DNA of 58,354 nucleotides from Bdellovibrionales bacterium (GCA_050246815.1 JBFWVI010000018.1:1-58354), one strand, 5' to 3'. Numbered from the stretch's first letter, positions 9,735-40,460 are shown. Made by a program: numbers and translations. Notes: a model not told the origin generated them from the sequence alone.

Positions 9735-9783
9735 TGGCACGATCCAGGCACGGGCTCCGTGGAGCAATCGTAATTTTGGCACG
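9735..9783 (+). repeat. Tandem GGCACG(A) site, putative recombinase arm-type sites
   Basis: TGGCACGATCCAGGCACGG with 11-bp period, plus a third TGGCACG at 9777. Confidence 0.75.
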
Positions 9784-9806
9784 CTTCCAATAAAGAGAAT
9801 CGGTAG

Positions 9807-10280
9807 CTACTGCTTAGGAGCTGATTCCGCAAATGCTTCCGTAAGCCCTCTGTCAGCTAGATCCTTAGATTCTCGATCCGATGGCTGAAAGCCCAAACTC
9901 TTCGACTCCACCAGCAATGCACGCACGTTTTCGGGCTTTTGATCTTTCTGAGTTCGTTCGTAAAAGTCTGCCAACTGAATTGCATCATGGAAGAGTGCCT
10001 GGGCCACTCTTCTTGAATCTCCCCCGTAAACAGACGCGTAGAGGTCTTTTGCTCGAGAAACATCTTGGGCAACGCACACTCCACGCGAATGGAGGCTACC
10101 CAACAGATACTTGGCTTCCTTTGAAAAAGGAGAAGCCCATTTCAAAGTCTTGTGACCTTCGCAAGGCTTATCGCTTTCAATACTCTCACGCGCAGACTCG
10201 ACGGCGAATGATAGGCTAACTAAAAAGCCGATCACACAAACGATAATCGCAACAAATGTTATCAAAATCATTTTCTTCAA
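9807..10280 (-). CDS. Sel1-like repeat exported protein, probable immunity protein for the upstream Tlde1-like tip
   Basis: Signal/TM segment and Sel1-like [22 protein letters not shown]; start overlaps the toxin stop. Confidence 0.7.
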
Positions 10281-10789
10281 AATCCAACCTCAATGGTGTT
10301 ACTGCCTGCATCTTGGTTCAGTATATTATTGATATTATTAAAATTGTTATCGTTTTCCCCTCGGTCGCCGGTAATACAGCCGTTGGAACCGCCCTTCCTC
10401 AGATGCAGATTGAAACCACCGCGATTCATGTTCAGGCGATATCCGATTCTCGACAGAAGACCTGGATCAAGAAACCAATCGCGTGCATTCGCTCCTGGTA
10501 CTTTCGTGATGTCGTACTTCCCGATAGGAATCGGTCCACCTTGGTAACCCGTCGATCCAGGATCGTTATTCCCGCTAAACATATTGGCACTTCCTGTCGA
10601 GCTTCCATCGTTGCTTGTGCAACTCAGTCGGCCTGTGCTGATGCTGTATGTGCATCGAGCGAGTCCTGACGGGTCGACCCAATTCACGGGGTCATTGGCA
10701 ACATACCCAAACAAATTCGTATCACCACCACCAAAGAGAATTGGGTCTTTCGATGTAAAGCGGCCTGTTTCTGGATCATAATCTCTTGC
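10277..10789 (-). pseudogene. Orphan Rhs C-terminal cassette 1: core end + Tlde1/DUF2778-like toxin domain
   Basis: [40 protein letters not shown], then GPIPIGKY and RGGFNLH....SNGCI. Rhs homology stops at about 10789. Confidence 0.85.
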
Positions 10790-10896
10790 TCTTTCAACCG
10801 CCACATTCATTTTAATAATCATAACCTGTTTATTTCGATTTGGAAGCACTTTGAGCGAACTGATTTTTTTAATAGTCCCGAATTTTTCTAATTTTT

Positions 10897-10916
10897 AGCC
10901 ACGGATTCTGGCACGA
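10897..10916 (+). repeat. Left-end tandem GGCACGA-type site of element 1
   Basis: AGCCACGGATTCTGGCACGA; the units begin 123 and 135 bp from the core at 10775. Confidence 0.7.
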
Positions 10917-11072
10917 CGTATTTCGGCCTCTCCAAAAACCTTCAGAAAATTTCGCGGAAAATTTTTTTTATATTTGGGACGGCACTTTGGACGAAAACGC
11001 ACTGTGTATTATTCGAGGGGTTTATGGCGTATAGGTAGGGCCAAACCCGATAGAGCGTTAAAGCAATAGATT

Positions 11073-11408
11073 CTATTTTGGTCGATTTCGATAGGCTTCA
11101 GCGAGCATATATTTAAATGGGCTACCCTTCGTACCACTGCCTGATCGCACAATGGTCCCGATCTCAACCAAAAACTTCACGTAGCGCATAACCGTTCGTT
11201 TTCTAAAACGCACAAGTTTTAGTAATTCATCCCGCGTGAGTGGTTTATCAGTTAAAAGGCGCATGGCCTCCATTAGAATGTCTCTCATCACAAGTTTACG
11301 CTTTTTACGTTTCAGCGCGAAAAGTGGATTGTCGCCATGTTCTTCAAAAATTCCTGTCAGTCTTATGGTCATTGGGCACCTCACCAAAGATAAGATTCTT
11401 GCTCCCAA
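11073..11408 (-). CDS. Small basic winged-HTH-like protein
   Basis: LTRDELLKL...RTVMRYVKFLVEIG.I.R.G.G.KGSPFKY pattern; start uncertain. Confidence 0.5.
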   Translation of the reverse strand: MGARILSLVRCPMTIRLTGIFEEHGDNPLFALKRKKRKLVMRDILMEAMRLLTDKPLTRDELLKLVRFRKRTVMRYVKFLVEIGTIVRSGSGTKGSPFKYMLAEAYRNRPK

Positions 11409-11498
11409 CGACGCTTTTAAAAATTTTTAGAAAAGATCACGTCTGCATAGGGTAAAAATGCAAAATATCCTGGGTCCGAGGATTCTTGGTCCGAAGCT

Positions 11499-11708
11499 TT
11501 ACTTACGTTTTCTTTCTGCGTGGACGAACTGATCGACCGCGTATTGGATTACATCTGTTTTATTCCAGCCCTTGGCTTTGGCGACCTCTTCTATTTCTTC
11601 GATCAAGGCCTCAGGTAAACGCAAAGAGACCATTTTACGGTCTTTGTCATCCGTATATTTAAACTCTAGCTCAGGTCGTTTTGGCAGCGTTTTAAATTGA
11701 TTCGCCAT
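11499..11708 (-). CDS. Ribbon-helix-helix (CopG) regulator
   Basis: MVSLRLPEALIEEIEEVAK..GWNKTDVI..AV; counterpart of 23717-23899. Confidence 0.8.
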   Translation of the reverse strand: MANQFKTLPKRPELEFKYTDDKDRKMVSLRLPEALIEEIEEVAKAKGWNKTDVIQYAVDQFVHAERKRK

Positions 11709-11746
11709 ACTCCATTATATTCTGCCTAGGTCTTTTTTTGCAAGCA

Positions 11747-11768
11747 ATGTCAATACGTGTATTGACAT
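11747..11768. promoter_or_regulatory. Inverted repeat (operator) overlapping divergent -35 boxes
   Basis: ATGTCAATAC-gt-GTATTGACAT; contains TTGACA on both strands. Confidence 0.6.
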
Positions 11769-11811
11769 GTTAATACGTTGCGTTATTATATGTATAACAG
11801 TCGGAGGTCCT

Positions 11812-12144
11812 ATGAGAACCACGAACCTAGCCATAAAACAAACAGTTACCGCGAGTGATATTTCGCAGGTCTTAAGCCTTCGTAGAACCTATGAAGCGCA
11901 AAAGCGCCGCCTTGAAATCGCGGAAACCGCTTTAAATGAACTAGAGCGCGCCATCATTCAACGTATTCAAAATGGCGCTACGGTTATCTGCGCATTTGAA
12001 GTGGCCGTTAAATCAATAGAGCGGAGAAATGTTGCGTGGAAGTCCGTCACGGCAGAACTGATAGGCCATGATGCCACCGAAGCCATCTTAGCCAGTACAA
12101 CGCCGACTATTTCTTATAGACTACTCATTAACAAGGGCGAGTGA
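11812..12144 (+). CDS. Hypothetical phage-like protein
   Basis: GGAGG RBS before ATG 11812; coiled-coil N-terminal half; overlaps the next gene. Confidence 0.6.
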   Translation: MRTTNLAIKQTVTASDISQVLSLRRTYEAQKRRLEIAETALNELERAIIQRIQNGATVICAFEVAVKSIERRNVAWKSVTAELIGHDATEAILASTTPTISYRLLINKGE

Positions 12145-12782
12145 CCGTGGACTTGCCCTTTCAGGGTGCAAAGCCCAAAAAGTTTATTCTTTATTTAAGA
12201 GTCTCGACGCTGGAGCAGAACACAGACCTCCAGCGTCTTGAACTGGCTGACTATGCACAAAAGCGCGGCTGGGAGTATGAAATACTTGAAGACAAGGCCA
12301 CGGGTAAAAACGCGAACCGCCCTGCGCTTAAAAAACTCATGCAGCTTGCTCAGATGCGTAAAATCGACGGCATTGCAGTCTGGAGGGCTGACAGATTATT
12401 TCGCAGTTTGAAAGAGGCCGTGGTGACATTGAGCGCACTCACCGAAATGAACGTCGCCTTTTACAGCCACAAAGATGGAATAGATTTGTCAACTTCTCAC
12501 GGCAGGCTATTTTCGCATTTACTTTTTGCTTTGGCAGAATTTGAAGGTGAACTCAATAAATCACGCGTGATTGCAGGATTACACGCGGCCAAGGCTCGCG
12601 GCGTTCGCTTGGGCCGTCCACAAGTCATTACCCAAGAAATTATCAATGAAGTTTTAAACCTTCGGCAAAAGGGCATCTCAATTCGCCAAATCTCAGAAAT
12701 GCTTGGCCGTCGCGTGAGCAAGACGTCGATAGAGCGCATTTTACGCGACTCCAATAATCCATCCAAAAAGGTGGGTATATGA
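12141..12782 (+). CDS. Serine recombinase (resolvase/invertase) with C-terminal HTH
   Basis: YLRVST..Q, RPAL, DRLFRS and G.RLGRP motifs. Confidence 0.92.
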   Translation: MTVDLPFQGAKPKKFILYLRVSTLEQNTDLQRLELADYAQKRGWEYEILEDKATGKNANRPALKKLMQLAQMRKIDGIAVWRADRLFRSLKEAVVTLSALTEMNVAFYSHKDGIDLSTSHGRLFSHLLFALAEFEGELNKSRVIAGLHAAKARGVRLGRPQVITQEIINEVLNLRQKGISIRQISEMLGRRVSKTSIERILRDSNNPSKKVGI

Positions 12783-12920
12783 GACGCTTAAATTCATTTG
12801 CCCGACTGATTTGGTCAACTGTCCAAGACACTCATCAAACTTTAGTTTTTGAGGCAAAGAACCAGCCACGTCCAGTCATTGAGAATTTTTCAACTGAAAT
12901 TGATTCGGTTGGGCCAGTGA

Positions 12921-13283
12921 TTGATTGGACTTAACCAAGCTATGGAAAAGACGAAACTATCATTGATGGCACTAACTCTTAGGAACCAATTAAAACTGCT
13001 CCTTGAGCGGCATGAGATGACTGCGGCCCAACTCAGTCGCAAAAGCGGCGTGAGTCAGCAAGTGCTGTCAATATGGCTTCGCGGCGGTGAACCTAAGAAA
13101 ATGAATCAAGTCAAAAAAGTCGCCGACGTATTTGGTGTGAGTGTTGACCAACTTTGTTTTGGCAACGGACTCGATAGCCATTCTCAACGCGTAACAGAAC
13201 TCGATGCCCTGCTTGGCGAAGACCAATGGGTTGGCGGTTTGTTCGAGGTACGGTTTAGACGAGTTAAAGGAGGCGCAAAATGA
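12921..13283 (+). CDS. XRE-family HTH regulator
   Basis: MTAAQLSRKSGVSQQVLSIW...VADVFGVSVDQL.FG; counterpart of 24066-24398; start uncertain. Confidence 0.82.
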   Translation: MIGLNQAMEKTKLSLMALTLRNQLKLLLERHEMTAAQLSRKSGVSQQVLSIWLRGGEPKKMNQVKKVADVFGVSVDQLCFGNGLDSHSQRVTELDALLGEDQWVGGLFEVRFRRVKGGAK

Positions 13284-14404
13284 ATTTAGTCCGAATCATA
13301 TTCATGGCACTACTGCTGATGGGATGTGCTTCAACTCCTGAAAAAACTGGCATTGAAGGCAAAGCTGTAGAAATTCAATCGTTCCCATCGGAAACATGGG
13401 ACGGCAAAACCATCGAATACTTATCAATCATTAAATTCCCTTCGCTGGCGGGAAAAACCAAAAAAGAAGCCGAGAACATCAGGCGGTTATACGTTCAGAT
13501 GGGTCTTAAAAAAAGTTTCCAGTTTTTGTTTCGCATCGTTAAGTACGACCCTACCGCAATTCAAGCGACCTATTCTGGCTCTTGCGAAGACCTCGCGCCA
13601 CTTAAGCAAAAGACTTGCCCGATGACAAAAATGTCCACGGGCGAGAAAAATCTCGACTTCAGCGCATGGAGTGAATTTATCAAATTCGCAGAGCCTCTAC
13701 CTAAATCGACAGATGTGAGAATTAAATATGTCGAGGACCGCCTTCTAAATTTTGAAGACATTCCGATTTTGACTTCAATAAAAGATAGCGACGGCAATAT
13801 GATGCCAACGGTGTATTTTGCTCCCGATAAAATTGTACCCGATCATTATGACGGCTTTTTAACGACGGAATTTCAAGCGGCGGAATACGAAGGCCAAATA
13901 AAGATCAATGACAAATACGACGTGCGTTTCGAACTCCCATCGGCGGCGATCTTTGTCCCTTTGGATAAAAAAGCTGATGACAGAATCACGCTAATTGCAC
14001 CGCACGAAAAGTTAGCAAATTTGTTCCATAAGAGCGCACCGAATTTATCGACTGCGTTTCTTGCGAAAATGGACAGCGAAATCTCAAAGAAGTTAGAACC
14101 GTATTCCATCGCGTTGGCCAGCGGCGGCGCTGACGGCGGGACCATCATTACGAATTTGATTCAGGATGAATTGTATAATCAAGACGAAGACTCCTCTTCT
14201 GAAGTCCGTATGCCAAGTTGGATCAGCGACGTGGATATTCCCCGTGGGAAGGCCGTTTTTTGCTATCTGCTCCTATATGCAGCAAAAATAGAAGCTGAGC
14301 GCCACAAAGAAGATGGCTTAGTTGTCTTTAAAATTTCAGTGAACATGGATGAGCTTTTACGATTAGCGAAGGTGGAACCTTATGAAAAGCATATGGAAAA
14401 ATAG
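13280..14404 (+). CDS. Hypothetical lipoprotein
   Basis: Lipobox LLMGC; GGAGG RBS. Confidence 0.7.
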   Translation: MNLVRIIFMALLLMGCASTPEKTGIEGKAVEIQSFPSETWDGKTIEYLSIIKFPSLAGKTKKEAENIRRLYVQMGLKKSFQFLFRIVKYDPTAIQATYSGSCEDLAPLKQKTCPMTKMSTGEKNLDFSAWSEFIKFAEPLPKSTDVRIKYVEDRLLNFEDIPILTSIKDSDGNMMPTVYFAPDKIVPDHYDGFLTTEFQAAEYEGQIKINDKYDVRFELPSAAIFVPLDKKADDRITLIAPHEKLANLFHKSAPNLSTAFLAKMDSEISKKLEPYSIALASGGADGGTIITNLIQDELYNQDEDSSSEVRMPSWISDVDIPRGKAVFCYLLLYAAKIEAERHKEDGLVVFKISVNMDELLRLAKVEPYEKHMEK

Positions 14405-15077
14405 TATTTCCGTGCTCATTGCTTTGTTTTCTTGCGTGGCCCAGGCTGACGAACTGGACACCCATTTGGCCAAACTAAAAAAGGTCGTCGAAAAAGATGG
14501 CCGCTGCGAGTTTGCAGTAGCCCAAATCCCCACTGGAAACCATCGGACATCAGAATCTCTTTGGCCTAAGTCAGTCGCTTGCCTTGGTGACATTGTCGTC
14601 AATGAGGGCACTATGCGCGAGAAGTCAGGATGCGCCGCCTTTTATCTCGACACTTACACACTGCGAACAAGTGGCGTCGGCACCGAGGGTCGCATGAAAA
14701 TTGCCAACGGTAAAAAGTGCGCGAGCGATGGGCTTGAGGAGGTCACTGGTCTCAACCTTCAAGGGTACGTCGATGAAAAAGCTGGATCATTTAACGGTGT
14801 ACCAAATTTAGATGTCGGCTGGGTTTTCTATGATGGCAGTCGCACAAATTTTATGACTCCAACTATCGTTTACTCGAAAAGCAGCCAAAGATACGAAGCG
14901 TGGTGGAATCAAAAGCGAAAAGAAGTGATTGCTCAGAATAAGGCCCTGGCGGAAAAGAGAAAAGTTGAGGAGCGGCAAGCTCACGACAGCGACTTAGCCG
15001 AACAGCGCAAATTGAATGAGGAGAAAATTCAACAACGGAAGAAAAACAAAGAAGCTGAAGCCCTCTGGAAAGAGTGA
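14382..15077 (+). CDS. Hypothetical secreted protein with a C-terminal coiled coil
   Basis: Signal peptide ending AQA; paired cysteines. Confidence 0.65.
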   Translation: MKSIWKNSISVLIALFSCVAQADELDTHLAKLKKVVEKDGRCEFAVAQIPTGNHRTSESLWPKSVACLGDIVVNEGTMREKSGCAAFYLDTYTLRTSGVGTEGRMKIANGKKCASDGLEEVTGLNLQGYVDEKAGSFNGVPNLDVGWVFYDGSRTNFMTPTIVYSKSSQRYEAWWNQKRKEVIAQNKALAEKRKVEERQAHDSDLAEQRKLNEEKIQQRKKNKEAEALWKE

Positions 15078-15086
15078 GGAGGTCGC

Positions 15087-15569
15087 GTGATGCCGTCTCC
15101 TGATGAACTTTTAAGCCGATTTGTCGAAATTCAAGTGCTTCAAGGCAATCCCGAAGCAATTGCTTATTTTGAATCATTGGATTCGATTTCTCAGAGCCTT
15201 TTACTTGCGGGTGTCGAAGAGCCAATCATTAATGAAATCTTTAATGACAAGTCGGTGCCGCTGCACACATTGAGGCGCATTGCTAGTAACTGGCCAATCA
15301 GCGAAAAGTGGCGGTGCATTTTTACGGAGCGCCTTAGCAAGGCGGCAAATCAAAATACCAAAACAAAAGACGCATACGAGATTCTTGGCATTGGCAGCGA
15401 TGCTTCTGAAATTGAAATCAGCGTCGCATACAAAGACGCCATCAAAAAATACCACCCCGACCGAGTGGCAAACTTGGGCCAAGAACTACAAGACCTGGCG
15501 GAACAAAAATGTAAAGAAATTAACGGCGCATACGATCTCATAAAAAATCAGCGCCGTTCCGCAGCTTAA
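15087..15569 (+). CDS. Protein with a C-terminal DnaJ domain (DjlA-like)
   Basis: DAYEILG...AYK..IKKYHPDR...KEINGAYDLI. Confidence 0.85.
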   Translation: MMPSPDELLSRFVEIQVLQGNPEAIAYFESLDSISQSLLLAGVEEPIINEIFNDKSVPLHTLRRIASNWPISEKWRCIFTERLSKAANQNTKTKDAYEILGIGSDASEIEISVAYKDAIKKYHPDRVANLGQELQDLAEQKCKEINGAYDLIKNQRRSAA

Positions 15570-15583
15570 AACGGGAGACGTAC

Positions 15584-16042
15584 ATGGACCAACGAAAACC
15601 CAGTGAATTGGAAATCGTTATAGACAAAATGCTTGGCGACTTGCAGCTAGATTTAACTAGTGCAAAGCATGTCACCGCTACAGGCGTAATATACAATTTT
15701 CTGTGGGATGACCGTCCTTTTTTTATATCGTTTCCGCCGACAATGCCGAACACCTATTCGCATGTTTTTAGAATGGAGATAGAAATTGCAGAGCTAAATG
15801 AAGCCGATGCTGGCCGCATACTTTACGAAATTGCACTCTACGTACATGTGCATGACTGCACTTTGATTCGTGTGGTCCCAAAGCCAAGCACTAACCGAAC
15901 AATCAAAGTTTTACTCCAAGTGGTTGGCTTGGTTGACTGGCTAAAGCCAGAGTTCATTTCAGATGTCGTCATCAATATGGCCGACCTTGCAATTTATTTC
16001 CGCGACACGATGACCGAGAGAAGCCAAAGAAAGACGGCGTGA
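15584..16042 (+). CDS. Hypothetical protein
   Basis: 152-aa ORF with RBS, in the same operon as the DnaJ gene. Confidence 0.6.
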   Translation: MDQRKPSELEIVIDKMLGDLQLDLTSAKHVTATGVIYNFLWDDRPFFISFPPTMPNTYSHVFRMEIEIAELNEADAGRILYEIALYVHVHDCTLIRVVPKPSTNRTIKVLLQVVGLVDWLKPEFISDVVINMADLAIYFRDTMTERSQRKTA

Positions 16043-16061
16043 TGCTCACTCAATCTATTAT

Positions 16062-16565
16062 TCAGGAATTATCTCTTAGCATAGCGAGGTCTTTTAGCTC
16101 CTGTGTGCACTCCGCTTTTAGTGAGTTAAGACGCTGTTGCACCATGCGCTGATGTTCCATCTGCCATCTTGTATTGGTTGGCGCGAGGCTTTCTTCTAGA
16201 ACACGCTTAATCGTCGATTTATTAAACCCGCTCGTATCAACCGTGATTTCGATATTTTTGCCAATCACTACAATTTCGGCATTCACTCGCCCTGCAATTT
16301 GAGGATGGCTTCGGAACGAACGCTCAAGCTGCATTCCGAAGTCTTGGTCGATGTTATGCTTTGCCTTGTACTTTAGGCTTGTCTTGCCCGTCTGTGACTG
16401 GTCAAGTGCTGGATTATCTAAGTCCACCTGAAGTGTTGGCGGAACCGTTTCATTGGCAATTTTGTCGTCGTAATATGTTTCAATCTCGACCTTAGCCGCG
16501 TCGAATCCGCTTGGACTTTTTAGGTCGTGCTTCTTAGACATTTGAATTGCGAGTTTTCCCATCAA
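16062..16565 (-). CDS. Hypothetical protein
   Basis: 167-aa ORF with GAGGTG RBS. Confidence 0.55.
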   Translation of the reverse strand: MMGKLAIQMSKKHDLKSPSGFDAAKVEIETYYDDKIANETVPPTLQVDLDNPALDQSQTGKTSLKYKAKHNIDQDFGMQLERSFRSHPQIAGRVNAEIVVIGKNIEITVDTSGFNKSTIKRVLEESLAPTNTRWQMEHQRMVQQRLNSLKAECTQELKDLAMLRDNS

Positions 16566-16686
16566 ACACCTCGCTAGGTTATCGGTTTTCGTGATGGCGC
16601 TCTAAACAGCACACGGCAGCAAGTGACCGATGAGACATGAGCGAGACAACAAGCGCTCGTGAGCGCATTAGGACACATTCAGCTAA

Positions 16687-17592
16687 TCAAGAGTATTTGA
16701 GCCTAATCGCGTTTTCCAAACGTTTACGAACCTGATCTGGGGTTTCATGTGGCTGAAGACGGCCAAAGTAATCAGGTCCCAAACGTCGCATTACGATGTC
16801 GTCGTTCGCCGCCTGAAGCTGCAAGAGTTCTTGCTCTAAGCGAAGACGCTCTTTTTCTGCAAAGGCAGCTTCATGAGGCCGTAACTTTTCTATTTTTTTA
16901 CTATTGGCAGCTTTTTTCCTAATCTTATCCAGTTTCAAAATTTGCTTTTTAGTCAGGTATGCCAATGGTTCGCCAACAATGTTCGCAATAAATTCCTGGT
17001 CATATTCATCAAGAGATTTGGACTGAGCCAATGATTCAAATTCAGTTTCATCAAGACCAATAGCCATTGGTTCTGCTTCGCTTTTTTCTTCCTTTGGCTC
17101 CTCCCTTGAAGACGTAGGATTTTTGTGTCCAGTAGCAGTAGCGATTACATTTGGTTTATATTTGTCGTTTACATCTGGTATTGGTTCCACCGCTTGAGGG
17201 CTTGGATTGCCTTGTTTGGTGAAATCCATTTCCCCATTTGGTGGAACGCTTTTTTCTCCAGAAACAGCGAGACTCGAATCGTCGTTGATGGTGTACCAAC
17301 ATGTTCTGTCGTAACGATGTCGGTTGAAGTTACCCTTCAAAATGGCTCCTTGAGCGACAAGATTGTTTAAAATTGTTTCGATTTGTTTTTCAGTCCAATA
17401 GGAAAAAAGCTTTGCGAAGTCTTTCACTGAATTGAAGGTCCAATAGCGTCCCTCTTTTAAGTGCATTCGTGACTGCTTAGCTTTGTTGTGGTCTGTCCAG
17501 AATCGTAAATTCTAAAGCATGATAGCTTCGGCAACGCCGTATTTGATGGCGTCTTCACGTGAAAAAACATGTTTTATTTCTTGGGTATCCAT
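16687..17592 (-). pseudogene. Phage-type replication initiator (N-terminal HTH) interrupted by an in-frame TAG
   Basis: Reads MDTQEIKHVFSREDAIKYGVAEAIML*NLRFW...GRYWTFNS..F.YW.EKQI...GNFN...YDRTCWYT. TAG at 17512-17514; RBS before ATG 17592. Confidence 0.75.
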
Positions 17593-19443: not shown

Positions 19444-19455
19444 AGAGGAGAATTT

Positions 19456-20439: not shown

Positions 20440-20463
20440 TCAGGACGCTAGCCGCGCCTTCTC

Positions 20464-22549: not shown

Positions 22550-22570
22550 TGGCACGAAGCTGGCACGATG
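22550..22570 (+). repeat. Tandem GGCACGA site after immunity gene 2
   Basis: TGGCACGAAGCTGGCACGATG, 11-bp period. Confidence 0.8.
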
Positions 22571-32004: not shown

Positions 32005-32985
32005 ATGGCCGTTCAAGTGAACACTTGCATGTTAAAAGATGGGACAATGTTGGCTAGCTACACCCATCCGCTAACGAAAAGAAAGGTACGTCGAACATTT
32101 GCATCAGTTCTTCAGGCCAATGAATACAAATTAAAAATCGAGAACCAGTTTTGTGCGGCCGATCTTACCAGCTACTGCAATATGACTTTGGAAGAGTTAA
32201 TGGTTTTATTCCTCAGCGAAAAACCAACAAGTACATTCTTCAAACTGCGCATGCACCTCATCGACTTCACTGAAACCTTTGGCCACATGTTCGTTTACAA
32301 CATAACCCCCGACATGCTTCGCAACTGGCTTGATCAAGTCCAGCAGGAAAACAAGCTCACCGATATGAGTATGCGGAGCTTAAAATGCACATTGGATCGC
32401 TTGTTTGATTTCCTAATCGAGAAAGAAATCATCTCCGAATCGCCATTAAGAGAAATCTACTATCGGAAAACGCCAGCAGACGCCATTACCCGTAATCATT
32501 TACCATCGCATGAGATTGAAAAGCTGCTTGAGGCCATTAAGAAATATTCACCAGGCTACCTTTACCCCATTATCAAGTTGTTCTCAGAAACAGGCGCAAA
32601 GGTCACTGAAGTTGTCGAGCTTAAATGGAGCCAAGTCGACTGCGTAAAACGCTCAATACGCCTCGAGGGCACCGACCGTAGCCAGCCCCGTCTTGTGCCT
32701 ATCTCTGAAGAACTGGCGACACTCTTATCAAAAGCTCAGCGTGAAACCGGCGTGGTGTTTAAGACTTTTTATCGTGAGCACTTCACTCGCGTAAAACTAA
32801 CCCGAGCAATAAATGAATTCAAAGCGCGTGGATTATATCGGCGCAACTGGAACCTACTAGACCTGCGCCACTCCTTTGGAGTTAATTTTCTTGCTAATGG
32901 CGGCAATCTACGCGATTTGCAGGCGCAGATGGGTCACGGCAACATCTTCGAGACAAAACGCATCTACGGCGATATTACGAAGTAA
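32005..32985 (+). CDS. Tyrosine recombinase B (element 2), altered catalytic motifs
   Basis: TGAKVTE, LDLRHSFG, MGH.N...TKRIY; colinear with the 19456 protein. Confidence 0.88.
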   Translation: MAVQVNTCMLKDGTMLASYTHPLTKRKVRRTFASVLQANEYKLKIENQFCAADLTSYCNMTLEELMVLFLSEKPTSTFFKLRMHLIDFTETFGHMFVYNITPDMLRNWLDQVQQENKLTDMSMRSLKCTLDRLFDFLIEKEIISESPLREIYYRKTPADAITRNHLPSHEIEKLLEAIKKYSPGYLYPIIKLFSETGAKVTEVVELKWSQVDCVKRSIRLEGTDRSQPRLVPISEELATLLSKAQRETGVVFKTFYREHFTRVKLTRAINEFKARGLYRRNWNLLDLRHSFGVNFLANGGNLRDLQAQMGHGNIFETKRIYGDITK

Positions 32986-33017
32986 TAGAGCCTCATGGAT
33001 AAGCTGTGATTCCCAGC

Positions 33018-33386
33018 CTATACCTTTCTACTTCCCTTGCATCCAGTAATCTGAAAATTAATACAGCCCCAAAATGGTTTCCATTTTTGCCCAGCTTTTG
33101 GCTTTTTTAATTTCATTGGCCCATTGCATTCAGGACATTGCAATGTTGAATCGGTCTTTAAATATTTAACCGGACCTGATTTGGAAATAATCTCGGCACG
33201 CTCTTTTCGATCTGCCTCACGACGCTCAAGTTTATTCCGCTTACGCTTCAATAAGGTATTTTTGCCGGAAACAAAACCCATAAACTTTGCCTCCATTAAG
33301 ATCTGCGTTCTTGATCCATCGGATCTTTCATCATCAACAATGACTGCACTTTTGCAGTGATTTTTGTTGATATGCAAAGATCCCAA
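33018..33386 (-). CDS. Protein with a topoisomerase-type C4 zinc finger
   Basis: CPECNGPM.LK......FWGC.NF...C; start uncertain. Confidence 0.7.
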   Translation of the reverse strand: MGSLHINKNHCKSAVIVDDERSDGSRTQILMEAKFMGFVSGKNTLLKRKRNKLERREADRKERAEIISKSGPVKYLKTDSTLQCPECNGPMKLKKPKAGQKWKPFWGCINFQITGCKGSRKV

Positions 33387-33427
33387 TCCTATTTTTATCC
33401 AAATTTTCCGAACTATTTGAATTTTTA

Positions 33428-33447
33428 TGGCACGATTTAGGCACGAT
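33428..33447 (+). repeat. Tandem GGCACGA site abutting immunity gene 3
   Basis: TGGCACGATTTAGGCACGAT, 11-bp period, 3 bp from the stop codon. Confidence 0.82.
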
Positions 33448-33450
33448 CAT

Positions 33451-33810
33451 TTAGCTCAGATGTTTTTTAATAAACTCGTTCCACGTTATTGGGCCCAATT
33501 TACGCCGTTGGTAGGAATGAAAAATAGCTGCGACGAGTCCGAAGAAAATGCCGCACACAATACTAGGTATTGCTATTTGATTGAGGGCGCGATCACTCCA
33601 TGCCGTAAAATGCATGAACGTCCCCCAAGAAACTCCAAAAAAAACAGCCGCCAATAGCCCATGAACCCATGCTGACCAGAAAATTGCTGGGGGAACCTCA
33701 ATTCCCATTTTCTCAATAAGCCATTCATGAGGCGCGGGGCTTGTGGTTTTGGACCAGCCCTTATTCTTAGAGTACTCTCGCCAACGGCTTATACTGTCAG
33801 AGTGGCCCAT
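33451..33810 (-). CDS. DUF6404-like two-TM protein, probable immunity protein for the active tip
   Basis: MGI.VPP..F.S, FFG..WG.FM and Y.RRKLG...W pattern; directly after the Rhs gene. Confidence 0.7.
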   Translation of the reverse strand: MGHSDSISRWREYSKNKGWSKTTSPAPHEWLIEKMGIEVPPAIFWSAWVHGLLAAVFFGVSWGTFMHFTAWSDRALNQIAIPSIVCGIFFGLVAAIFHSYQRRKLGPITWNEFIKKHLS

Positions 33811-33878
33811 TGATTTTCTGCTCCTTCATATAACTTATAATAAGTTTAACTCAATACTTCTCAACTGTTAACTCATAT

Positions 33879-36800
33879 TCATCTGCACATAGGTGGCTGT
33901 TCGATTCGCGGCGATTGAAAGTATGGAGGCAGAGATTGCGGCCGCGACAAAGGTGGCTCCGAACCATACGCCGGAGGGATAAAGCCTCCGACATGAGGCC
34001 CAAGTACGCCTCCTATGGTTCCACCAATGAGCACTCCTGCTATCGCTCCGGCCCCTGTACCAAATCCGGGGTTAATATAGGTGCCGTAATAAGCACCATA
34101 AGCGCCGCCGCCAATTGCGCCACCAACAATGCCTGCGATTTGATCGCCAGTTAAAAATAATCCTGTCGGATCAATGAAGTTGATTGGGTCATTTAATACG
34201 TAGCCATAAAGGTTGGTGTCGCCACCACCAAACAGAATCGGATCTTTACTAATCCATCTTCCTATTTCTGGATCATAATCCCGAGCACCTAAGCGTAAAA
34301 GTTTGGTTCCTGGATCATACAATCCCCCCGCAAACCCAAACGGCTGGAAGCCCGGGCTCGTGTCCATCGTCACGTTGCCCCACTCGTCGTAATCCATAGC
34401 CTGAGCGATAGCGCCCGTCGTAGCGTTGATCACTAGACGAGGGCTGCCCAGATGATCCGTGATAATTCGGTAACGGATGCCTGACCTGATCATCATATCA
34501 GGCGCATTGCCCTTAGAGGCGTAACCGAACATCGAAATAATATTGCCCGAACCATCTAGCTCGGCAAGCGGACGAAGCTGATCGATGTAAAGCCAACTGC
34601 GCTCCATCACGCCGTTTACAACACGAGCCACTCTGCGGTTTAGACCATCGTACTTGTATAAAATCACAGTGCCGCTGGGTAAAGTCACCGACTTCAAATT
34701 GCCGAAGGCATCGAAGCTGTTACTGGTCACTTGACCTGTCAAGGTATTCACTTTGCTTTGCTGCTCGCCATTCGTGTTAAATCCATACGTGATTGCCCCA
34801 AATGAAACTATCCTGTCTTGGGAGTCGTAAGTCGCCGCCATTCCATTAATGGATGTACGGTTTGAGTTGGCATCGTAAGCATAGCTGCCAACCACGGCGC
34901 CGTTGCGCATCACCTGCGTCAACCTGCCCGTGCGATCATAGGTGTAATCAAATGTATTCGAAGCCCCACCCATAAAACTTTCTACTTTGCGTGAAAGGCG
35001 GCCCAAATTGTCACGAGTGTAAGTGATATTTAAACTGGGCGCGGAATAGCTGATGATCTCACCAAAACTATTGTGACCGTAGGTGTCGCTGACCGAGCCC
35101 AATGCGGATCCGGTGATCAAACCATTGGCCGTATTTCGCGTCAGATTCAACTGATCCACGCGGATCAATTCCTCATCTAAACTGTAACCCAGATCCATGG
35201 CGTGGTTATCATCGTTATTTAAAGTGTATCGACCATGGTGAAGTTCGCGGTTAAAGTCGATGCGGATGTTGCCCACCACGTCGCCGCTCCAGGTGTAGCC
35301 CCACGGAATCGCATAGGGGTTTAGCGACACAAACAAGTTCACATTGTCCGCTGAAGCATTGGCGGTTTCGATGCGCTTTTGATTGTATGAAAAACTTAGT
35401 GATTCGCCGGTTGAAGCCAGCACGCCCGTCAACAAGGCCCCTTGCGCGTAGGCATAATCCAACACTTTACCGTCGGGACGGATGGCCCGAGTGACTTGAC
35501 GATCTAAGTTGTAATTATAAACTGTGCTCACGGTTATACCGCCACCCAGCAGGGGCGGCAGGTATTCACTTGGCTCATCTGCCACGTTATAATTAAAACC
35601 ATGCACCGGACGGCCCGGCGGCGTCACGCCGGTCAGATTACCATTGTTGTCATAGTTAAAACCAATCACCCGGCCGTCATCCAGAATCTGTTCGACCACG
35701 CGGCCCGAAAGATCATAGTTAAACGACGTCACCTGATTTAAAGAATTGGTGATCGAGCGTAAAAATCCTTGGGCATTGTAGGTGAAGCTTGAAAACCTTG
35801 CCCCCTGCTGTTGGTTGATCAAACGGCCACGAGGGTCGTAATCCATCGACACTGGTGTTAACCCGCCGAATTGAATCTGCACGGGCTGCTGTTGCGGGCT
35901 ATAGACCACACTTAAAACACGATTCAACGGCGTTTGCAGCGTTTCTGTGCGCACCGATGAATCGTAGGTCTGGTGATAGGTGCGCGGAACGTTGCTGACT
36001 TGACTTTCTAAGGTCAAAGAGTCCGCTTGAACGTAATTAAATAAACTCAGTGGCTGAGGGTAAGTGACTTGCCGGGTTTGCGTGCTAAAACGCACAAAGC
36101 CAGTTTGAATCTGCAAGGATTGATTTTGGTTGAACGCCGCGCTTAAACCAAAACGCGGGTCTTCGGTGGGAACAGAGGTGGTGCGCAGCCCGCTGCCGAC
36201 AGAAGCGATTCGTGTTCCATCACTGCCAATTGTGTGCTCTTCAATAAAGCCATCAGGGTGCACACGAGAAATCAGTTGCTGCCCCGAACCCACTAAAGGC
36301 TCGGTCACGTTTGAGGCGAACACACGGCCCTCTGCCGTAGTCTCTTGCACGGTGGACAAAAGGTTGATGGTGTCGAAGGTTTTTAAATATTCAAAGAACC
36401 CGCCAAAATCATTTTCGTCGCGGGTCAATTCACCTTTGGCATTGTAATAAAACCGCGAGGCATTGCCCTTGGGCTTCTTGAATTCCGCCAATAAACCCGA
36501 GGCATGATACTGCATTTCGTAGCGTTGGTTTTGAGGACTTGTCAACGCAGTCAACTGACCATTGCCGTTCACGCCCAAATTGGTCTCTTGGCCATCCGGC
36601 GCGGTTATGCGCGAGGGACGCCCCAAACTATCCCGCGTGATCACGGTCGCGGCGCCAAAAGCATCGCGCACTTGAATCAAAAAACCCCCGACGTCGTATT
36701 CAAAGCCATGCTTCACCGCGCCCGTGCGCGCGAAAAGCGTATTCAAGTGGCGACCGTTTTGGTCGAACTCGTAAAGCTCTTGGCCGTCTTCTGAAGCCAA

Positions 36801-39800
36801 ATAGATGCGATTGGCTTCTTCTAATGCCGCCATCGGTGAAATCCGGTACACCACGCGAGACTGACCATCGGCCACATAAATCGCGCCATCAGGCGCATAG
36901 GCGACGTCGCTGGTTTCGCCCATCGACAATTGCAGCGCATAACCATCCAGATTAAATTGGCCGTTACCGCTGATCGTGCGAATCAAACCTTCCGAGGTCA
37001 CCAATCGAATACGACGATTGCCCCGATCCGCAATGACCATATTGCCATCGGGTCCAAACGACAAACCCGTTGGCGTATCCAACAATGTCGTGGCCGCGCT
37101 GCCATTTTCGCGCAAAGCCCCGGCCACGCCCGTGCCCACCGCGCGTGTCAACACACCACCAGAATCCAACCGCTTAATCGAATGCCCACCCGCATCGCTG
37201 ATGAAAATATCGGTGCCGGGTAGCATGGCCACCGCATAAGGCGCTGATAACTGCGCATTCAAAGCCGGGCCACCGTTACCGCCATTGCCCGCAACGCCGG
37301 TGCCGGCGATGGTGGTCATGATGCCATTCACATCAATTTGACGAATACGATGATTGCCTGAATCGGCGATCAACAAACGCCCCTCGGTGGTCATAAACAC
37401 TCCCCGAGGAAAATTTAAAAGCGCGGCGGCGGCCGGGCCGCGATCCCCGCCAAAGCCCGCAGCGCCGGTGCCAGCGATGGTGCTGAGCACACCCAAAGGT
37501 GAGAGTCGGTGAATCACATGATTGGCGGTATCAGCAAAATAAAGCGAGCCATCCGGCCCCACACTGGGTTTGCCGGGCTGACCGATGTTTTGCACCACCG
37601 TGGTGACGATGCCCTGATTGTCGATTTTGCGAATACGGCCCGCATTGATATCCGAAACATACACAGCCCCATCGGGCCCTACGGTCAAGTAGGTGGGACG
37701 CATAAAGGTGGCCTCGCGGACTGGTCCGCCGTCACCGGTCGAGCCATTGGCACGACTGCGGTTCAAAGACTTCACCACCAAACCCAGTTCAGAAAAAAGA
37801 CGATGGCCGCCATCACCGGCATATAGATTTTTTGAAACCGGATCATAACTGTGATGAATACTTAAGTTCCAACCCGCTACGCCCTGGTTCAAATAGGCCG
37901 AGCTATTGCCTAGAACTTGAAGGTATGAACGGCTTATACGCCCTGCCTCACGGGCCGGCACCGAGCTGGGATTAAATCCCGCCAATGAGCCAAATAGCGG
38001 ATCGTTGCTAGGCAAGGCCAACAAATAATTGGCATCAAATAAGTAATCGATGGTGAAACGCGCCTGCACCGGATTTAAAACCGCTCGTCCATACGCATCT
38101 AGGCCATCCCATTCGAAGCGCGCGTTCAAAGTGGATTGGGGCGCAAAGCTTTGCGTGAACACGCGACCCGCCACTTCGCTTTTTAAGACGATTTCACGCA
38201 TGCCCGTCGTATTTAAATTGATGCCCAAATTCACATCGATGGCGTGGCGATTGCGCCAACCCGGGGAGCGGTCCGAGTTATAAACTAAATCAAAGGGCGC
38301 GCCGACCACGGGCAAAGATTCAGATAAAATCAAACTATCGCGATCAATGCGCGAGCCCCCACACTGATAGTTGGGCGCTTTGTTTCTTTCTGAAAAATTA
38401 AGCGGCCCCCGCGCCGGTGGTTCGCCCGGCAAAGACGACGCCGCACAATTTAGATCTTTGGGCGAAAACCGCGCATTGCGCATACGCCAGATGGCTTTGG
38501 GCGCCTGATAAAGATTGGCCAATTGAATTAATTCCGCCGTGGTGATGCCCAGTGCATCCAATTCTGTGGCGGTGGCCGGCTGGCCTGAGCCATTTAAATC
38601 CAAAACTGCTTGGCTGTTATTTTCACTCAAAATCTGGATCACTTGGCCGTTGGCTTCGGGCAACCACTGCCCCACGTCTGAATCATAAGTGCCCACTGGG
38701 ATGGCCACGCCGATCGGGAAATTTAAAAAATTATCCAGGTAAAATGAGACCGGCGCAGAAAATTCAACCGTCTTCGCACCCAAGGCCATGGCCTCATCCA
38801 CGCTCAGTTCCACGGCGTAAGTGTAGGCCGTGGTGGTGGGCAAAGGCGCCGGCATGCGCGACGACCCGCCGTCGCCCACCGTAAATTCAGTCGCCCGCAC
38901 GGTCATTTGCGCCAATGGGATTCGCGTCCCGCCCGGCAAAACCGCATCGGCCGTGGTGTTGGGCGCAAAATACATTCGTGGCTGACGCGCGCCAAATGCG
39001 TCCACGCTTTCTTCGCCCACCATCACTTGGGCACTGGCGGAATTGACTTGAATCAAGGCACTTTGTTGGCTTGGTTGAAGCAAGACCACATCGGGCAAGC
39101 TTGAATAATTTTGATAATCAGGCTGCACGCTTCGGTCCAGCGCAAAATAACCATCCAAAGAAAAATTCAAACTTAAAGGTCCACCACCGTTGACGGCCAA
39201 ATCATAAGCGCCGTCCGCACGCGACAGGGTTTGCCCCCACTCCGGATGACTTTTCACCCGCACTTGAACACCCGCTAGGGGCTGGCCGCTGCCGCGCAAA
39301 ACGCGACCACGCAAAACCGCCATACGCCGATCTTCAAGACTACCGCTGACCACGCCGGTTTGAATGGGGTTCGCTCCGGTAAACAAGAACCGATTGGCGT
39401 CGGCATAGCTGGTGGCCACCGTGGGCGATAGCATCGGCGCAACCGTGGCTGGATCGGGCGGCAATCCCACCGCTGTGACCGCAAGGCTTTTGGTGGTGGT
39501 GCCACTAAGCCCTTGCGAATCCGCCACCGTCAAGCGCACCGTAAAATTGCCGGCATTTTGAAACACATGGGTGGTCTGCACGCCCACGCCGCTTTGACCG
39601 TCACCAAAATCCCACACATAAGAGGCAATTGCGCCTTCGGCGTCGTTCGATTCGCCACCATCCAGCAGCACCATCAGGGGTGCCGTACCGCTTGAAGGAG
39701 TCAGGCTAAAACTCGCCGTCGGTGCGGTGTTGGCCTGCACGCCAATCGTGACCGAGGCTGAGTCAGAAAGGCCCATATTGTCGGTGACCGTCAGCGTGGC

Positions 39801-40460
39801 CACTCGGGCGCCGGCGGATTGATAGACGTGTTGCACCAGTGCGCCTTGGGCGGTGTCACCATCACCAAAGACCCAATCATAGCTGACAATGCCCGAGTCA
39901 TCGCTGCTGGCGCCGCCATTCAATGACACAGTTAAAGGCGCAAATCCCGAAGTGGGACTGGCACTGACGCGGGCCACGGGGGCCTGGTTGACCGCTTGCT
40001 GGCCATAAATCGCCAACGTCAAACGCGAACCTTTTAACCCTCGAAGCTCCAACCTTATCGAATTGCTTTGAGGCAATGCGACCACTTTGCTGATTTTGTC
40101 TTTTAAAAGATTCAAGTCGCCCGGCCCAAGCACCAGTTGGTTGTTGAAAAGAATTTTTCCATAGGCGATACGGCTGGCCACGGCTTCGACCAGAAGGGCT
40201 GCGTTTTTAAGTTCGCACAACAAACGGCTCAGCCATCCGCCAAAGCACGACAGCGGCACATAGGCCTTGCCATTTTGGATCTCGATTCGGTACGACCCGG
40301 CCGCCGACAGATTCACCTGCGCGGTATGGATTTGCACCTTGGGCTGACCGCTATAAAGGTTGGGGCCAAACACAGGCTCCGCTGCATGGGCCATGGCGGC
40401 CGTCAGAGTCAGCAAAAAGAAGAGCGCGCTTCTGTAGAATTTTAATGAGGGCTTGGCCAT
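33879..40460 (-). CDS. Giant teneurin-like Rhs/YD-repeat toxin: signal peptide, 2 PKD domains, NHL repeats, YD shell, Rhs core, glycine-zipper tip
   Basis: GGAGG RBS and ATG 40460, AHA signal site, WVFGDG/WDFGDG PKD motifs, NHL repeats, YD repeats, PFGFAGGLYD...ARDYDP..GRW...NDPINFIDPTG. Confidence 0.93.
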   Translation of the reverse strand: MAKPSLKFYRSALFFLLTLTAAMAHAAEPVFGPNLYSGQPKVQIHTAQVNLSAAGSYRIEIQNGKAYVPLSCFGGWLSRLLCELKNAALLVEAVASRIAYGKILFNNQLVLGPGDLNLLKDKISKVVALPQSNSIRLELRGLKGSRLTLAIYGQQAVNQAPVARVSASPTSGFAPLTVSLNGGASSDDSGIVSYDWVFGDGDTAQGALVQHVYQSAGARVATLTVTDNMGLSDSASVTIGVQANTAPTASFSLTPSSGTAPLMVLLDGGESNDAEGAIASYVWDFGDGQSGVGVQTTHVFQNAGNFTVRLTVADSQGLSGTTTKSLAVTAVGLPPDPATVAPMLSPTVATSYADANRFLFTGANPIQTGVVSGSLEDRRMAVLRGRVLRGSGQPLAGVQVRVKSHPEWGQTLSRADGAYDLAVNGGGPLSLNFSLDGYFALDRSVQPDYQNYSSLPDVVLLQPSQQSALIQVNSASAQVMVGEESVDAFGARQPRMYFAPNTTADAVLPGGTRIPLAQMTVRATEFTVGDGGSSRMPAPLPTTTAYTYAVELSVDEAMALGAKTVEFSAPVSFYLDNFLNFPIGVAIPVGTYDSDVGQWLPEANGQVIQILSENNSQAVLDLNGSGQPATATELDALGITTAELIQLANLYQAPKAIWRMRNARFSPKDLNCAASSLPGEPPARGPLNFSERNKAPNYQCGGSRIDRDSLILSESLPVVGAPFDLVYNSDRSPGWRNRHAIDVNLGINLNTTGMREIVLKSEVAGRVFTQSFAPQSTLNARFEWDGLDAYGRAVLNPVQARFTIDYLFDANYLLALPSNDPLFGSLAGFNPSSVPAREAGRISRSYLQVLGNSSAYLNQGVAGWNLSIHHSYDPVSKNLYAGDGGHRLFSELGLVVKSLNRSRANGSTGDGGPVREATFMRPTYLTVGPDGAVYVSDINAGRIRKIDNQGIVTTVVQNIGQPGKPSVGPDGSLYFADTANHVIHRLSPLGVLSTIAGTGAAGFGGDRGPAAAALLNFPRGVFMTTEGRLLIADSGNHRIRQIDVNGIMTTIAGTGVAGNGGNGGPALNAQLSAPYAVAMLPGTDIFISDAGGHSIKRLDSGGVLTRAVGTGVAGALRENGSAATTLLDTPTGLSFGPDGNMVIADRGNRRIRLVTSEGLIRTISGNGQFNLDGYALQLSMGETSDVAYAPDGAIYVADGQSRVVYRISPMAALEEANRIYLASEDGQELYEFDQNGRHLNTLFARTGAVKHGFEYDVGGFLIQVRDAFGAATVITRDSLGRPSRITAPDGQETNLGVNGNGQLTALTSPQNQRYEMQYHASGLLAEFKKPKGNASRFYYNAKGELTRDENDFGGFFEYLKTFDTINLLSTVQETTAEGRVFASNVTEPLVGSGQQLISRVHPDGFIEEHTIGSDGTRIASVGSGLRTTSVPTEDPRFGLSAAFNQNQSLQIQTGFVRFSTQTRQVTYPQPLSLFNYVQADSLTLESQVSNVPRTYHQTYDSSVRTETLQTPLNRVLSVVYSPQQQPVQIQFGGLTPVSMDYDPRGRLINQQQGARFSSFTYNAQGFLRSITNSLNQVTSFNYDLSGRVVEQILDDGRVIGFNYDNNGNLTGVTPPGRPVHGFNYNVADEPSEYLPPLLGGGITVSTVYNYNLDRQVTRAIRPDGKVLDYAYAQGALLTGVLASTGESLSFSYNQKRIETANASADNVNLFVSLNPYAIPWGYTWSGDVVGNIRIDFNRELHHGRYTLNNDDNHAMDLGYSLDEELIRVDQLNLTRNTANGLITGSALGSVSDTYGHNSFGEIISYSAPSLNITYTRDNLGRLSRKVESFMGGASNTFDYTYDRTGRLTQVMRNGAVVGSYAYDANSNRTSINGMAATYDSQDRIVSFGAITYGFNTNGEQQSKVNTLTGQVTSNSFDAFGNLKSVTLPSGTVILYKYDGLNRRVARVVNGVMERSWLYIDQLRPLAELDGSGNIISMFGYASKGNAPDMMIRSGIRYRIITDHLGSPRLVINATTGAIAQAMDYDEWGNVTMDTSPGFQPFGFAGGLYDPGTKLLRLGARDYDPEIGRWISKDPILFGGGDTNLYGYVLNDPINFIDPTGLFLTGDQIAGIVGGAIGGGAYGAYYGTYINPGFGTGAGAIAGVLIGGTIGGVLGPHVGGFIPPAYGSEPPLSRPQSLPPYFQSPRIEQPPMCR

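Follow-up and report, generated by a model that had tools for sequence, protein, structure and literature searches.

Probable site-specific tip exchange at the Rhs core by a tyrosine integrase family of Bdellovibrionota

How orphan tips accumulate behind Rhs and related genes without deletion of the old tip has been an open question since 2009. In the text available to us, Jackson 2009 (PMC2935791) describes the process as C-terminal displacement, in which one crossover with a circle pushes the old tip downstream. That text and the corresponding part of Kirchberger 2017 (PMC5361080) state that no integrase is known for it, and the latter draws a parallel with integrons and finds no evidence for an integrase. 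The relevant section of Koskiniemi 2014 (PMC3967940) proposes that an orphan tip was fused by recombination over 522 bp of 95% identity. Here we analyse a Rhs locus on a stretch of 58,354 nucleotides from a Bdellovibrionales bacterium (GCA_050246815.1, JBFWVI010000018.1:1-58354), hereafter the window, which is one entire contig of a 3.4 Mb metagenome assembly in 149 contigs. Two integrative elements lie between a Rhs carrier gene and its orphan tips. We consider it highly probable that tips are exchanged here in a site-specific manner, at the Rhs core, by a tyrosine integrase family of Bdellovibrionota. The evidence comprises the anatomy of the locus, a fixed breakpoint, arm-like repeats, family-wide linkage to Rhs, one empty junction and identity switches between related loci.

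Tyrosine recombinases linked to immunity arrays are described, in the part of the source available, for the rAID-1 loci of Bacteroidales (bioRxiv 10.1101/471110), and the accessible text of Zhang 2012 (PMC3482391) places polyimmunity loci beside XerC/D genes. Steele 2017 (PMC5727410), in its passages on Rhs arrays, reports integrase-like genes near the arrays of Snodgrassella and Gilliamella and raises the possibility of Rhs capture. The portion of a Stenotrophomonas preprint at hand (10.64898/2026.07.13.738213) describes integrases that flank whole clusters. For contact-dependent inhibition (CDI), the consulted part of Ruhe 2016 (PMC4927057) describes a toxin/immunity pair that stabilises its DNA through sibling killing. 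Full-text searches, which covered few subscription papers and no supplements, returned no account of an integrase that acts within the Rhs core.

Locus anatomy and an empty junction at a shared 8-mer

Read on the minus strand, the upstream part of the locus consists of a Rhs/YD gene, a DUF6404 gene, backbone 2, an orphan core end with tip 2 and a small gene; the downstream part consists of backbone 1, an orphan core end with tip 1 (Tlde1 domain), a Sel1-like gene and a relic. Open reading frames (ORFs) and family matches confirm this order, which had been proposed in the original prediction. The carrier is a teneurin-like protein of 2,201 amino acids (aa) with PKD, NHL, YD shell and Rhs core matches and a signal peptide recognised by eye. 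All three cores share the 8-mer ATTATGAT at their Y-D codons, and the three sites share a strand with one another and with the three tips. Exact Rhs similarity ends 2-3 nt before the Tyr codon in both orphans. The claim that both lose homology at the same D-Y-D codons thus stands for the position; the codons of orphan 2 read H-Y-D. Past the 8-mer, identity among the cores in the window is only about 71% across some 100 bp.

The two spacers, predicted to be related dual-tyrosine-recombinase elements of about 10-12 kb, indeed measure 10,825 and 12,672 bp, and their integrases pair at 59% identity. Their GC content is 44.5%, compared with 54% for the Rhs body. Common to both backbones are a xis-like gene (helix-turn-helix, HTH), two tyrosine recombinases, a resolvase, a CI-like HTH gene and a ribbon-helix-helix (RHH) gene. 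They differ in replication genes and cargo (DUF3987 and primase in element 2, OLD-type ATPase in element 1; for the element 1 gene at 16687-17466, which has no family match, a replication role is a guess).

Direct repeats stand at fixed places relative to these sites. The exact repeat CGTGCC-N5-CGTGCC occurs three times in the 3.4-Mb genome, each time after a putative immunity gene and 832-1,028 bp past the Tyr codon, and of the 13 relaxed copies in the genome two precede the Tyr codons of the orphans, by 134 and 135 bp. Arm-type or Xis sites are typically direct repeats one helical turn apart, and we call these repeats arm-like. The arm matrix was seeded from orphan leaders, so that its 18 of 58 upstream matches are circular, and the window's own variant scores poorly with it; independent of this seeding are the downstream matches, the anchors (0 of 37) and the genome-wide count of exact repeats. 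The repeat after immunity 1 suggests that tip 1, too, came in as an element.

An empty junction is observed for element 1. In run X1 (landfill), the assembly graph has a fork at 23447-23476: one contig of 52 nt (depth 3.5) links these window positions to 10753-10774, and a 12,724-nt contig (depth 11.4) covers element 1 and ends at the fork, the Rhs-side flank having a depth of 14. The joint letters matching 10753-10774 are unique in the genome, and 52 nt is the length expected from 31-mers for a joint of 8 shared bp. The junction is an exact loss of 12,672 bp with its joint within the 8-mer, and tip 2 and immunity 2 go with backbone 1; the unit is therefore tip, immunity gene, arm, backbone, arm and leader. 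The removal of 10783-23454 at the 8-mer bears out the proposal that each element carries a core end, toxin and immunity gene and targets Rhs. Run-contig cover was checked over 16001-36000, and the 10783 end is taken from the joint letters and the 12,724-nt span rather than from direct cover. Depth is not a share of cells, contigs lose rare forms, and run X3 holds the region in short low-depth pieces only. No excision of element 2 was seen in the run contigs. The element missing in X1 is the middle one, whose tip is silent; this single case fits addiction limited to the fused tip, and it renders doubtful the strictly chronological array that had been predicted.

A fourth minus-strand copy of ATTATGAT in the window lies within the OLD gene of element 1. 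The relic OLD fragment at 9289-9389 (compared with 22109-22211) begins exactly at this site, and no other TATGAT exists on that gene's coding strand. The core consensus is missing from its flanks, and the start of the relic may, from its position, reflect an off-target cut by an element integrase.

Rhs linkage and breakpoint across the integrase family

The catalytic residues R-K-H-R-H-Y of IntA are kept in 31 of 31 rows. A structural model (predicted local distance difference test, pLDDT, of 90) has an N-terminal domain of three strands plus a helix and aligns at full length with lambda Int, suggesting that IntA is a tyrosine integrase of lambda type whose catalytic residues are intact and which has an arm-binding domain; likewise lambda-type are the short shared end sequence ATTATGAT at three joints and the precise empty site. 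IntA reaches no cut-off among curated families (the IntI model TIGR02249 gives 66 and 82 bits, compared with a cut-off of 265), and its catalytic domain, set against XerA, lacks the insertion that marks integron IntI. In IntB, Lys replaces the first Arg in 27 of 32 rows, the catalytic Lys is present in 9 of 32 and the first His in 0 of 32; the second Arg, second His and Tyr are mostly retained. IntA, with its six catalytic residues and predicted lambda-like arm-binding domain, is likely the catalyst. IntB is probably a non-catalytic or atypical partner, judging from its residues, and the Xis-like protein probably sets the direction of the reaction. In a quick tree, the window IntA proteins fall in a well-supported 18-row dual-integrase clade whose hosts mix Bacteriovoracaceae and Pseudobdellovibrionaceae, which fits mobility. 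The nearest outside relatives (P0203, P0205, P0210-P0216) include proteins of 640-790 aa with two tandem recombinase domains, perhaps fused IntA-IntB. One element (L040:3009-6079) has one intA and two tandem intB copies.

Relatives of IntA number at least 210 at E<=1e-20 and form 117 clusters at E<=1e-30. The gene is found in 20 of 401 genomes of Bdellovibrionota, and 26 of the 27 genome loci of IntA relatives are named Bdellovibrionota, the remaining one being a 'Rickettsiales' bin. None of 60 nearer relatives of the source genome carries a match, and no IntA relative was found in viral-contig, phage-record or plasmid-record collections. Clustering at 90% integrase identity, with matches below 100 bits excluded, gave 63 groups besides the window; 20 of these extend at least 4.5 kb past the integrase, and the other 43, being too short, were dropped. 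At 17 of these 20 independent loci a Rhs core lies on the opposite strand within 4.5 kb, and the remaining three are also near Rhs (at 5.3 kb in one case, on the same strand in another and by tblastn only in the third). With a 3-kb flank, 20 of 29 loci have an opposite-strand core and 7 more have a farther, same-strand or tblastn-only Rhs; two (L055 and L145) have no Rhs. By chance, linkage would be expected at about 0.0006 per search window (368 cores in 401 genomes of an assumed mean size of 3.2 Mb). A Rhs core is present in 19 of 20 integrase-bearing genomes versus 109 of 381 others, although kin among these are not independent.

Near the family integrases we counted 98 unique cores: 13 full cores, 24 long fragments (many cut by contig ends, some genuine long orphans) and 61 short orphans. 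In 53 of the 61 short orphans, Rhs-like sequence stops within a few codons before the Tyr. The original prediction had proposed checking whether homologous integrases adjoin Rhs tips broken at the same codon, and the 17 linked loci and 53 orphans show that they do. Upstream of about -12, orphans resemble the local carrier no more than background. With each group represented by a single orphan, the bases retained in the non-coding flank are G-5 (20 of 24 orphans), A-6 (18 of 24) and G-11 (15 of 24), compared with a background of 22%. These bases mirror C+8, T+9 and C+14 on the other side, a pattern consistent with a core site that is inverted, if imperfectly, and flanks roughly 6-8 bp of overlap. 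The 7-mer spanning -2 to +5 is uniform within several arrays (9/9 in L148, 8/8 in L146, 6/6 in L142) and differs between arrays; with the pairwise identities given below, this test lends the exchange moderate support only.

Identity switches are observed in two pairs of loci. In L011 and L027 one tip-immunity-integrase block (99.7% identity over 2.9 kb) is joined to two different Rhs genes, the last mismatch being at -10. L032 and L069 share backbone and leader (99.75% over 8.9 kb), but the tips displaced in them differ, and mismatches start at -2. In no case was one tip seen fused at one locus and, in identical form, Tyr-broken at another. As control we used Rhs arrays of 13 genomes without an IntA match, picked from the top Rhs-core matches, a choice that favours long fragments; their 21 non-full cores comprise 19 long fragments, one degenerate core and one cleanly broken at the Tyr. 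A Tyr-broken orphan beside an otherwise long-fragment Rhs array (L161:13091) and relic integrase ends in the usual position (L156:10785-10976, L157:8605-8727, L169:7891-8151) suggest that the family may formerly have been more widespread.

Arm-like repeats, cassette arrays with a lone integrase and a HINT-type sister clade go beyond what had been predicted. Lone integrases close arrays of 8 (L148), 8 (L146), 5 (L142) and 2 (L141) cassettes of about 0.7-1.6 kb each, mostly without an arm repeat, whose borders are coding Rhs core sequence; the 15-20 kb beyond these integrases contain neither another core nor another arm. In the quick tree the lone integrases branch separately, and the N-terminal domain is missing from several of them. 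In L148, genes past the integrase resemble, by eye, a conjugation system, and one cassette tip (L148:12663-13004) matches the serum amyloid A family (E 1e-24). The dual-integrase loci L006 and L036 have minimal cassettes with a single arm between cassettes. The two loci without Rhs, L055 and L145, together with L150, repeat the arrangement of the family around toxin genes of other kinds, where PT-HINT, Imm40, Imm42, WapI and CPCC matches occur. Their presumed joints carry a short shared Ser-Ala-coding repeat (by script 12/14 in L145 and 13/14 in L150, by eye only in L055), a lead on a sister clade that flanks HINT-type toxins.

Excluding one duplicate of 94, 93 tips were counted. Tlde1, Ntox33, peptidase M23 and JAB-like domains are among them, four match DUF6973, and in L014 a long Rhs frame carries a tip with 66% identity to window tip 1. 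Each window tip is directly followed by a small, tightly linked gene, and a carrier whose C-terminal tip varies, together with such a gene, is the layout of polymorphic toxins. We infer from this layout that the tips would be toxic and the linked genes would confer immunity.

The features of the locus and of related loci are collected in Table 1. In the relic, an apparent toxin-gene tail precedes the BrnA/CopG-type antitoxin (region 8877-9255), and 55 bp of this tail recur at 9540-9594. A promoter scan gave results near chance. The whole genome has no second Rhs core and no further integrase pair of the IntA/IntB family. AI-2E and bamD-like genes flank the Rhs locus of the window and are adjacent to each other in 3 of 3 congeners, which makes the locus lineage-specific. 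The entire Rhs locus, carrier included, is missing between these two genes in the congeners.

Table 1. Positions of features in the window and in related loci (prefix L)
Feature	Position	Strand	Basis or remark
Rhs/YD carrier fused to tip 3	33879..40460	-	ORF 40484-33879, ATG at 40460; Pfam, NCBIfam
Recombination site a, ATTATGAT, D-Y-D codons of Rhs core, left joint of element 2	34272..34279	-	crossover use suggested by sister sites
Tip 3, currently fused, glycine-rich, putative toxin	33879..34157	-	no Pfam match
Putative immunity 3, DUF6404 membrane protein	33451..33810	-	role suggested by position
Arm-like direct repeat after immunity 3	33429..33445	-	exact CGTGCC-N5-CGTGCC
Element 2, 10,825 bp: tip 3, immunity 3, arm, backbone, arm, leader	23455..34279	.	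bounded by shared 8-mers
Element 2 xis-like 30704-30973, intA 30970-32004, intB 32005-32985	30704..32985	+	intA six of six catalytic residues; intB active site degenerate
Element 2 replication module: HTH, Zn-ribbon/Toprim primase, DUF3987	27770..30480	+	family matches
Element 2 RHH 23717-23899, CI-like HTH 24066-24398, cargo, serine resolvase 25914-26546	23717..26546	.
Arm-like repeat 134 bp before orphan 2 Tyr codon	23570..23586	-	relaxed copy
Recombination site b, ATTATGAT	23447..23454	-	one side of observed empty junction
Element 1, 12,672 bp: tip 2, immunity 2, arm, backbone, arm, leader	10783..23454	.	precisely absent from part of run X1 DNA
Orphan core end + tip 2, glycine-rich, Pro-rich end	23021..23454	-	no Pfam match
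Putative immunity 2, small hydrophobic protein	22612..22974	-	role suggested by position
Arm-like direct repeat after immunity 2	22551..22567	-	exact copy
OLD-type ATPase-Toprim cargo gene, possible anti-phage gene	20464..22416	-	family match
Element 1 xis-like 18032-18415, intA 18412-19443, intB 19456-20439	18032..20439	+
Element 1 backbone: RHH, resolvase 12141-12782, CI-like HTH 12921-13283, cargo incl. DnaJ-domain gene	11499..17466	.
Arm-like repeat 135 bp before orphan 1 Tyr codon	10898..10915	-	relaxed copy
Recombination site c, ATTATGAT	10775..10782	-	other side of observed empty junction
Orphan core end + tip 1, Tlde1 domain	10277..10782	-	domain match
Putative immunity 1, Sel1-repeat-like, hydrophobic N-terminal segment	9807..10280	-	putative role
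Arm-like direct repeat after immunity 1	9736..9752	-	exact copy
Relic of older element: OLD-gene fragment 9289-9389, BrnA/CopG-type antitoxin 8893-9255, 55-bp repeat	8878..9735	.
Integron-like arrays of 5-8 tip cassettes	L148:10300-19700; L146:1164-11584; L142:93-7647
Sister integrase clade loci	L145:713-10580; L150:2828-11800; L055:1156-6639

Proposed exchange and alternative explanations

In the exchange that we propose, the integrases would recombine at the Tyr-Asp/Asn codons opening the conserved end of the Rhs core. A unit, taken from site to site, would comprise the last ~40 core codons, a tip, an immunity gene, an arm, an optional backbone, a second arm and a leader of about 135 bp. As a circle, it would have the site between both arms, with tip and immunity gene nested within the attachment site. 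Crossover with the host Rhs gene, which we infer to be carried out by IntA, would fuse the incoming tip in frame on the carrier, and the anatomy and the strain pairs suggest that the old tip and its immunity gene would be parked behind the element. The reverse reaction between neighbouring sites would excise one unit; the product junction is seen for element 1 only. Addiction would apply at most to the unit whose tip is fused, and units would be transferred between genomes. At inner sites units can leave and perhaps enter, and since an inner unit can be lost by itself, strict chronology does not have to hold.

Several observations weigh against this exchange. Eight of the 61 short orphans retain 9-21 upstream codons, and long-fragment orphans also adjoin family integrases (L020, L026, L027, L032, L041, L135), both of which show that homologous recombination also acts on these loci. 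Identity of the 7-mer in same-group pairs is 0.58, the highest value and close to the 0.50 at D-P codons. The overlap is not fixed, as one backbone has different 7-mers in L032 and L069, which suggests either tolerance of mismatches or an overlap inherited from the target. One locus (L135/L136) has same-strand geometry. The empty junction is one contig from one run, X1, possibly the source of the window, and X2 has none; it could stem from a co-existing strain that never carried element 1, instead of excision. The reversible re-arming that had been predicted left no trace in the contigs of X1-X3, which lose rare forms: neither circle junctions nor Rhs-tip2 or Rhs-tip1 fusions occur among them. 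An expected empty Rhs allele was likewise not found, the three congeners having no Rhs carrier with the query used and lacking the whole locus (8878-40800). Among the scanned ORFs of either element, several of which belong to no family, there are no packaging, relaxase, mating-pair, transfer or capsid genes. Lastly, only 12 of 93 tips match relevant Pfam families, several of them DUFs; one match is spurious and 80 tips have none.

The last point leads to the possibility that swapping is site-specific and that many tips are not toxins, serving prey recognition, adhesion or kin signalling. The tips without a Pfam match include tips 2 and 3, and the carrier is teneurin-like; against this stand the small gene tightly linked to each window tip, the toxin-type domains listed above (Tlde1, Ntox33, peptidase M23, JAB-like) and the Imm40, Imm42, WapI and CPCC genes of the sister clade, and we hold such non-toxin roles to be distinctly improbable. 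A better-placed contender, if still an unlikely one, keeps the same site and the same enzyme and differs in emphasis only: the integrase would mainly rearrange chromosomal cassettes, as in an integron, and the large elements would be cassettes that carry an integrase. The lone integrases speak for it, closing arrays of 8, 8, 5 and 2 cassettes with no core or arm 15-20 kb beyond, standing on their own branch and in several cases lacking the N-terminal domain, as does the loss of the middle element alone in X1. However, the window units carry genes for Xis, replication, a resolvase and a repressor and are low in GC, the dual-integrase clade mixes hosts of two families, one block sits on different Rhs alleles in two genomes, and 0 of 60 relatives have the integrase.

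Homologous or microhomology recombination, by the circle model of Jackson 2009, could have built the array with the integrase elements as passengers. This model is established for enterobacteria; the control arrays consist mostly of long fragments, such fragments also occur beside family integrases, and 44-49 exact bases after the Tyr are common to some loci. Yet it predicts fragments of variable length, whereas 53 of 61 orphans break within a few codons. The window cores are about 71% identical beyond the 8-mer, yet the X1 joint lies inside it, and the fixed-distance arm repeats and the conserved non-coding G-5/G-11 would go unexplained, so that we judge the passenger account very unlikely. 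Even less credible, and largely refuted, is the idea that the backbones alone are the elements, having entered between tip/immunity cassettes already in place through crossover at the arm-like repeats. Similar direct-orientation repeats do stand at both ends of each backbone, and a single one lies between cassettes in L036 and L006, but the empty junction of X1 is at the core 8-mer and takes tip 2 and immunity 2 too, and the strain pairs switch at the Tyr codon, not at the repeats. That the window, from a 149-contig metagenome assembly, is a misassembly or chimera has a probability close to nil, since run X2, possibly also its source, carries 16001-36000 within one 52-kb contig with zero differences; the same layout moreover recurs in many independent genomes.

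There is also a broader reading that we favour by a little: phylum-wide integrases specialised on the carrier-tip junction of polymorphic toxins, running a toxin-cassette economy and in some cases domesticated. If this is true, most hosts would be targeted at the Rhs core and those of the sister clade at a post-HINT linker. Selfish elements would re-arm the host carrier as a form of rent and be protected while their own tip is fused, old units would decay into minimal cassettes, and a domesticated integrase would in some lineages act as a 'toxin integron' that recalls stored tips. The arms would then act across a loop of variable length, because tip and immunity gene sit inside the attachment site. 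The exchange offers a candidate enzyme for a process long ascribed to homologous recombination, and with an enzyme, an 8-bp site and a natural product junction named, the question becomes testable by a small plasmid assay. It would also represent a type of mobile element whose attachment site is itself payload, and would tie toxin diversification to horizontal transfer among predatory bacteria. The 80 of 93 tips without a Pfam match provide many uncharacterised toxin/immunity candidates.

Comparison with known systems

As in rhs C-terminal displacement, in the descriptions available to us, a full gene is followed by orphan tips with immunity genes. Displacement as described there leaves long, near-identical core fragments of variable length, whereas in the window the codon is fixed, the identity spans 8 bp, and there are arm repeats and a family of integrases dedicated to the site. 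Core fragments that are long, variable and near-identical are found in the control arrays and are absent from the window. Gene-restoring tyrosine-integrase islands resemble the window elements in having an arm-binding integrase, a Xis-like gene, a short shared site and a target gene kept in frame, and also in the displaced fragment that marks the far end and in tandem stacking. The elements e14 and phage 21, for example, integrate at icd. Such islands carry a copy of the old end that restores the product, whereas the window elements carry a different tip and an immunity gene; similarity is restricted to about 40 core codons, and the tips are unrelated. The carried fragment of 0.6-1.4 kb between site and arm repeat, and the second, degenerate integrase alongside the first, are further differences.

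Integrons comprise IntI, attI and attC, and one tyrosine recombinase serves the cassette array. As there, new units would displace old ones and only the first position would be active. Unlike in integrons, the integrase is not IntI, the site lies inside coding sequence, the product is a gene fusion and the integrase stands at the far end of the array. In the R64 shufflon (Rci/PilV), a tyrosine recombinase swaps a C-terminal segment at short sites within a gene. The shufflon inverts a closed resident set by inverted sites, whereas the window units are co-oriented, with all sites and tips on one strand, and would be added or removed and arrive from other genomes. Tn554 and RIT are multi-recombinase elements. 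The recombinase pair of the window is like them in number only. From phage satellites, integrative and conjugative elements (ICE) and integrative and mobilizable elements (IME), the elements are set apart by their scanned ORFs, among which packaging, relaxase and mating-pair genes are absent.

The rAID-1 and polyimmunity loci, in the sources available, consist of immunity genes only, with a 5', co-oriented recombinase. The units of the window hold core ends and toxin tips, would recombine into a carrier gene, and face the integrase, which is convergent and distal. For the integrases near the arrays of Snodgrassella and Gilliamella, no site, breakpoint or element is defined in the accessible part of Steele 2017 (PMC5727410), and it is by this description that the window is set apart from them. 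By analogy with surveillance by CDI toxins, the element here would supply the tip only and borrow the carrier of the host.

In defining features the window departs from integrons, rAID, shufflons, gene-restoring islands and homology-driven displacement. The component parts are known chemistry, and a conservative view would call the elements a variant of gene-targeting integrative elements; the locus acts both like a gene-targeting integrative element and like an integron.

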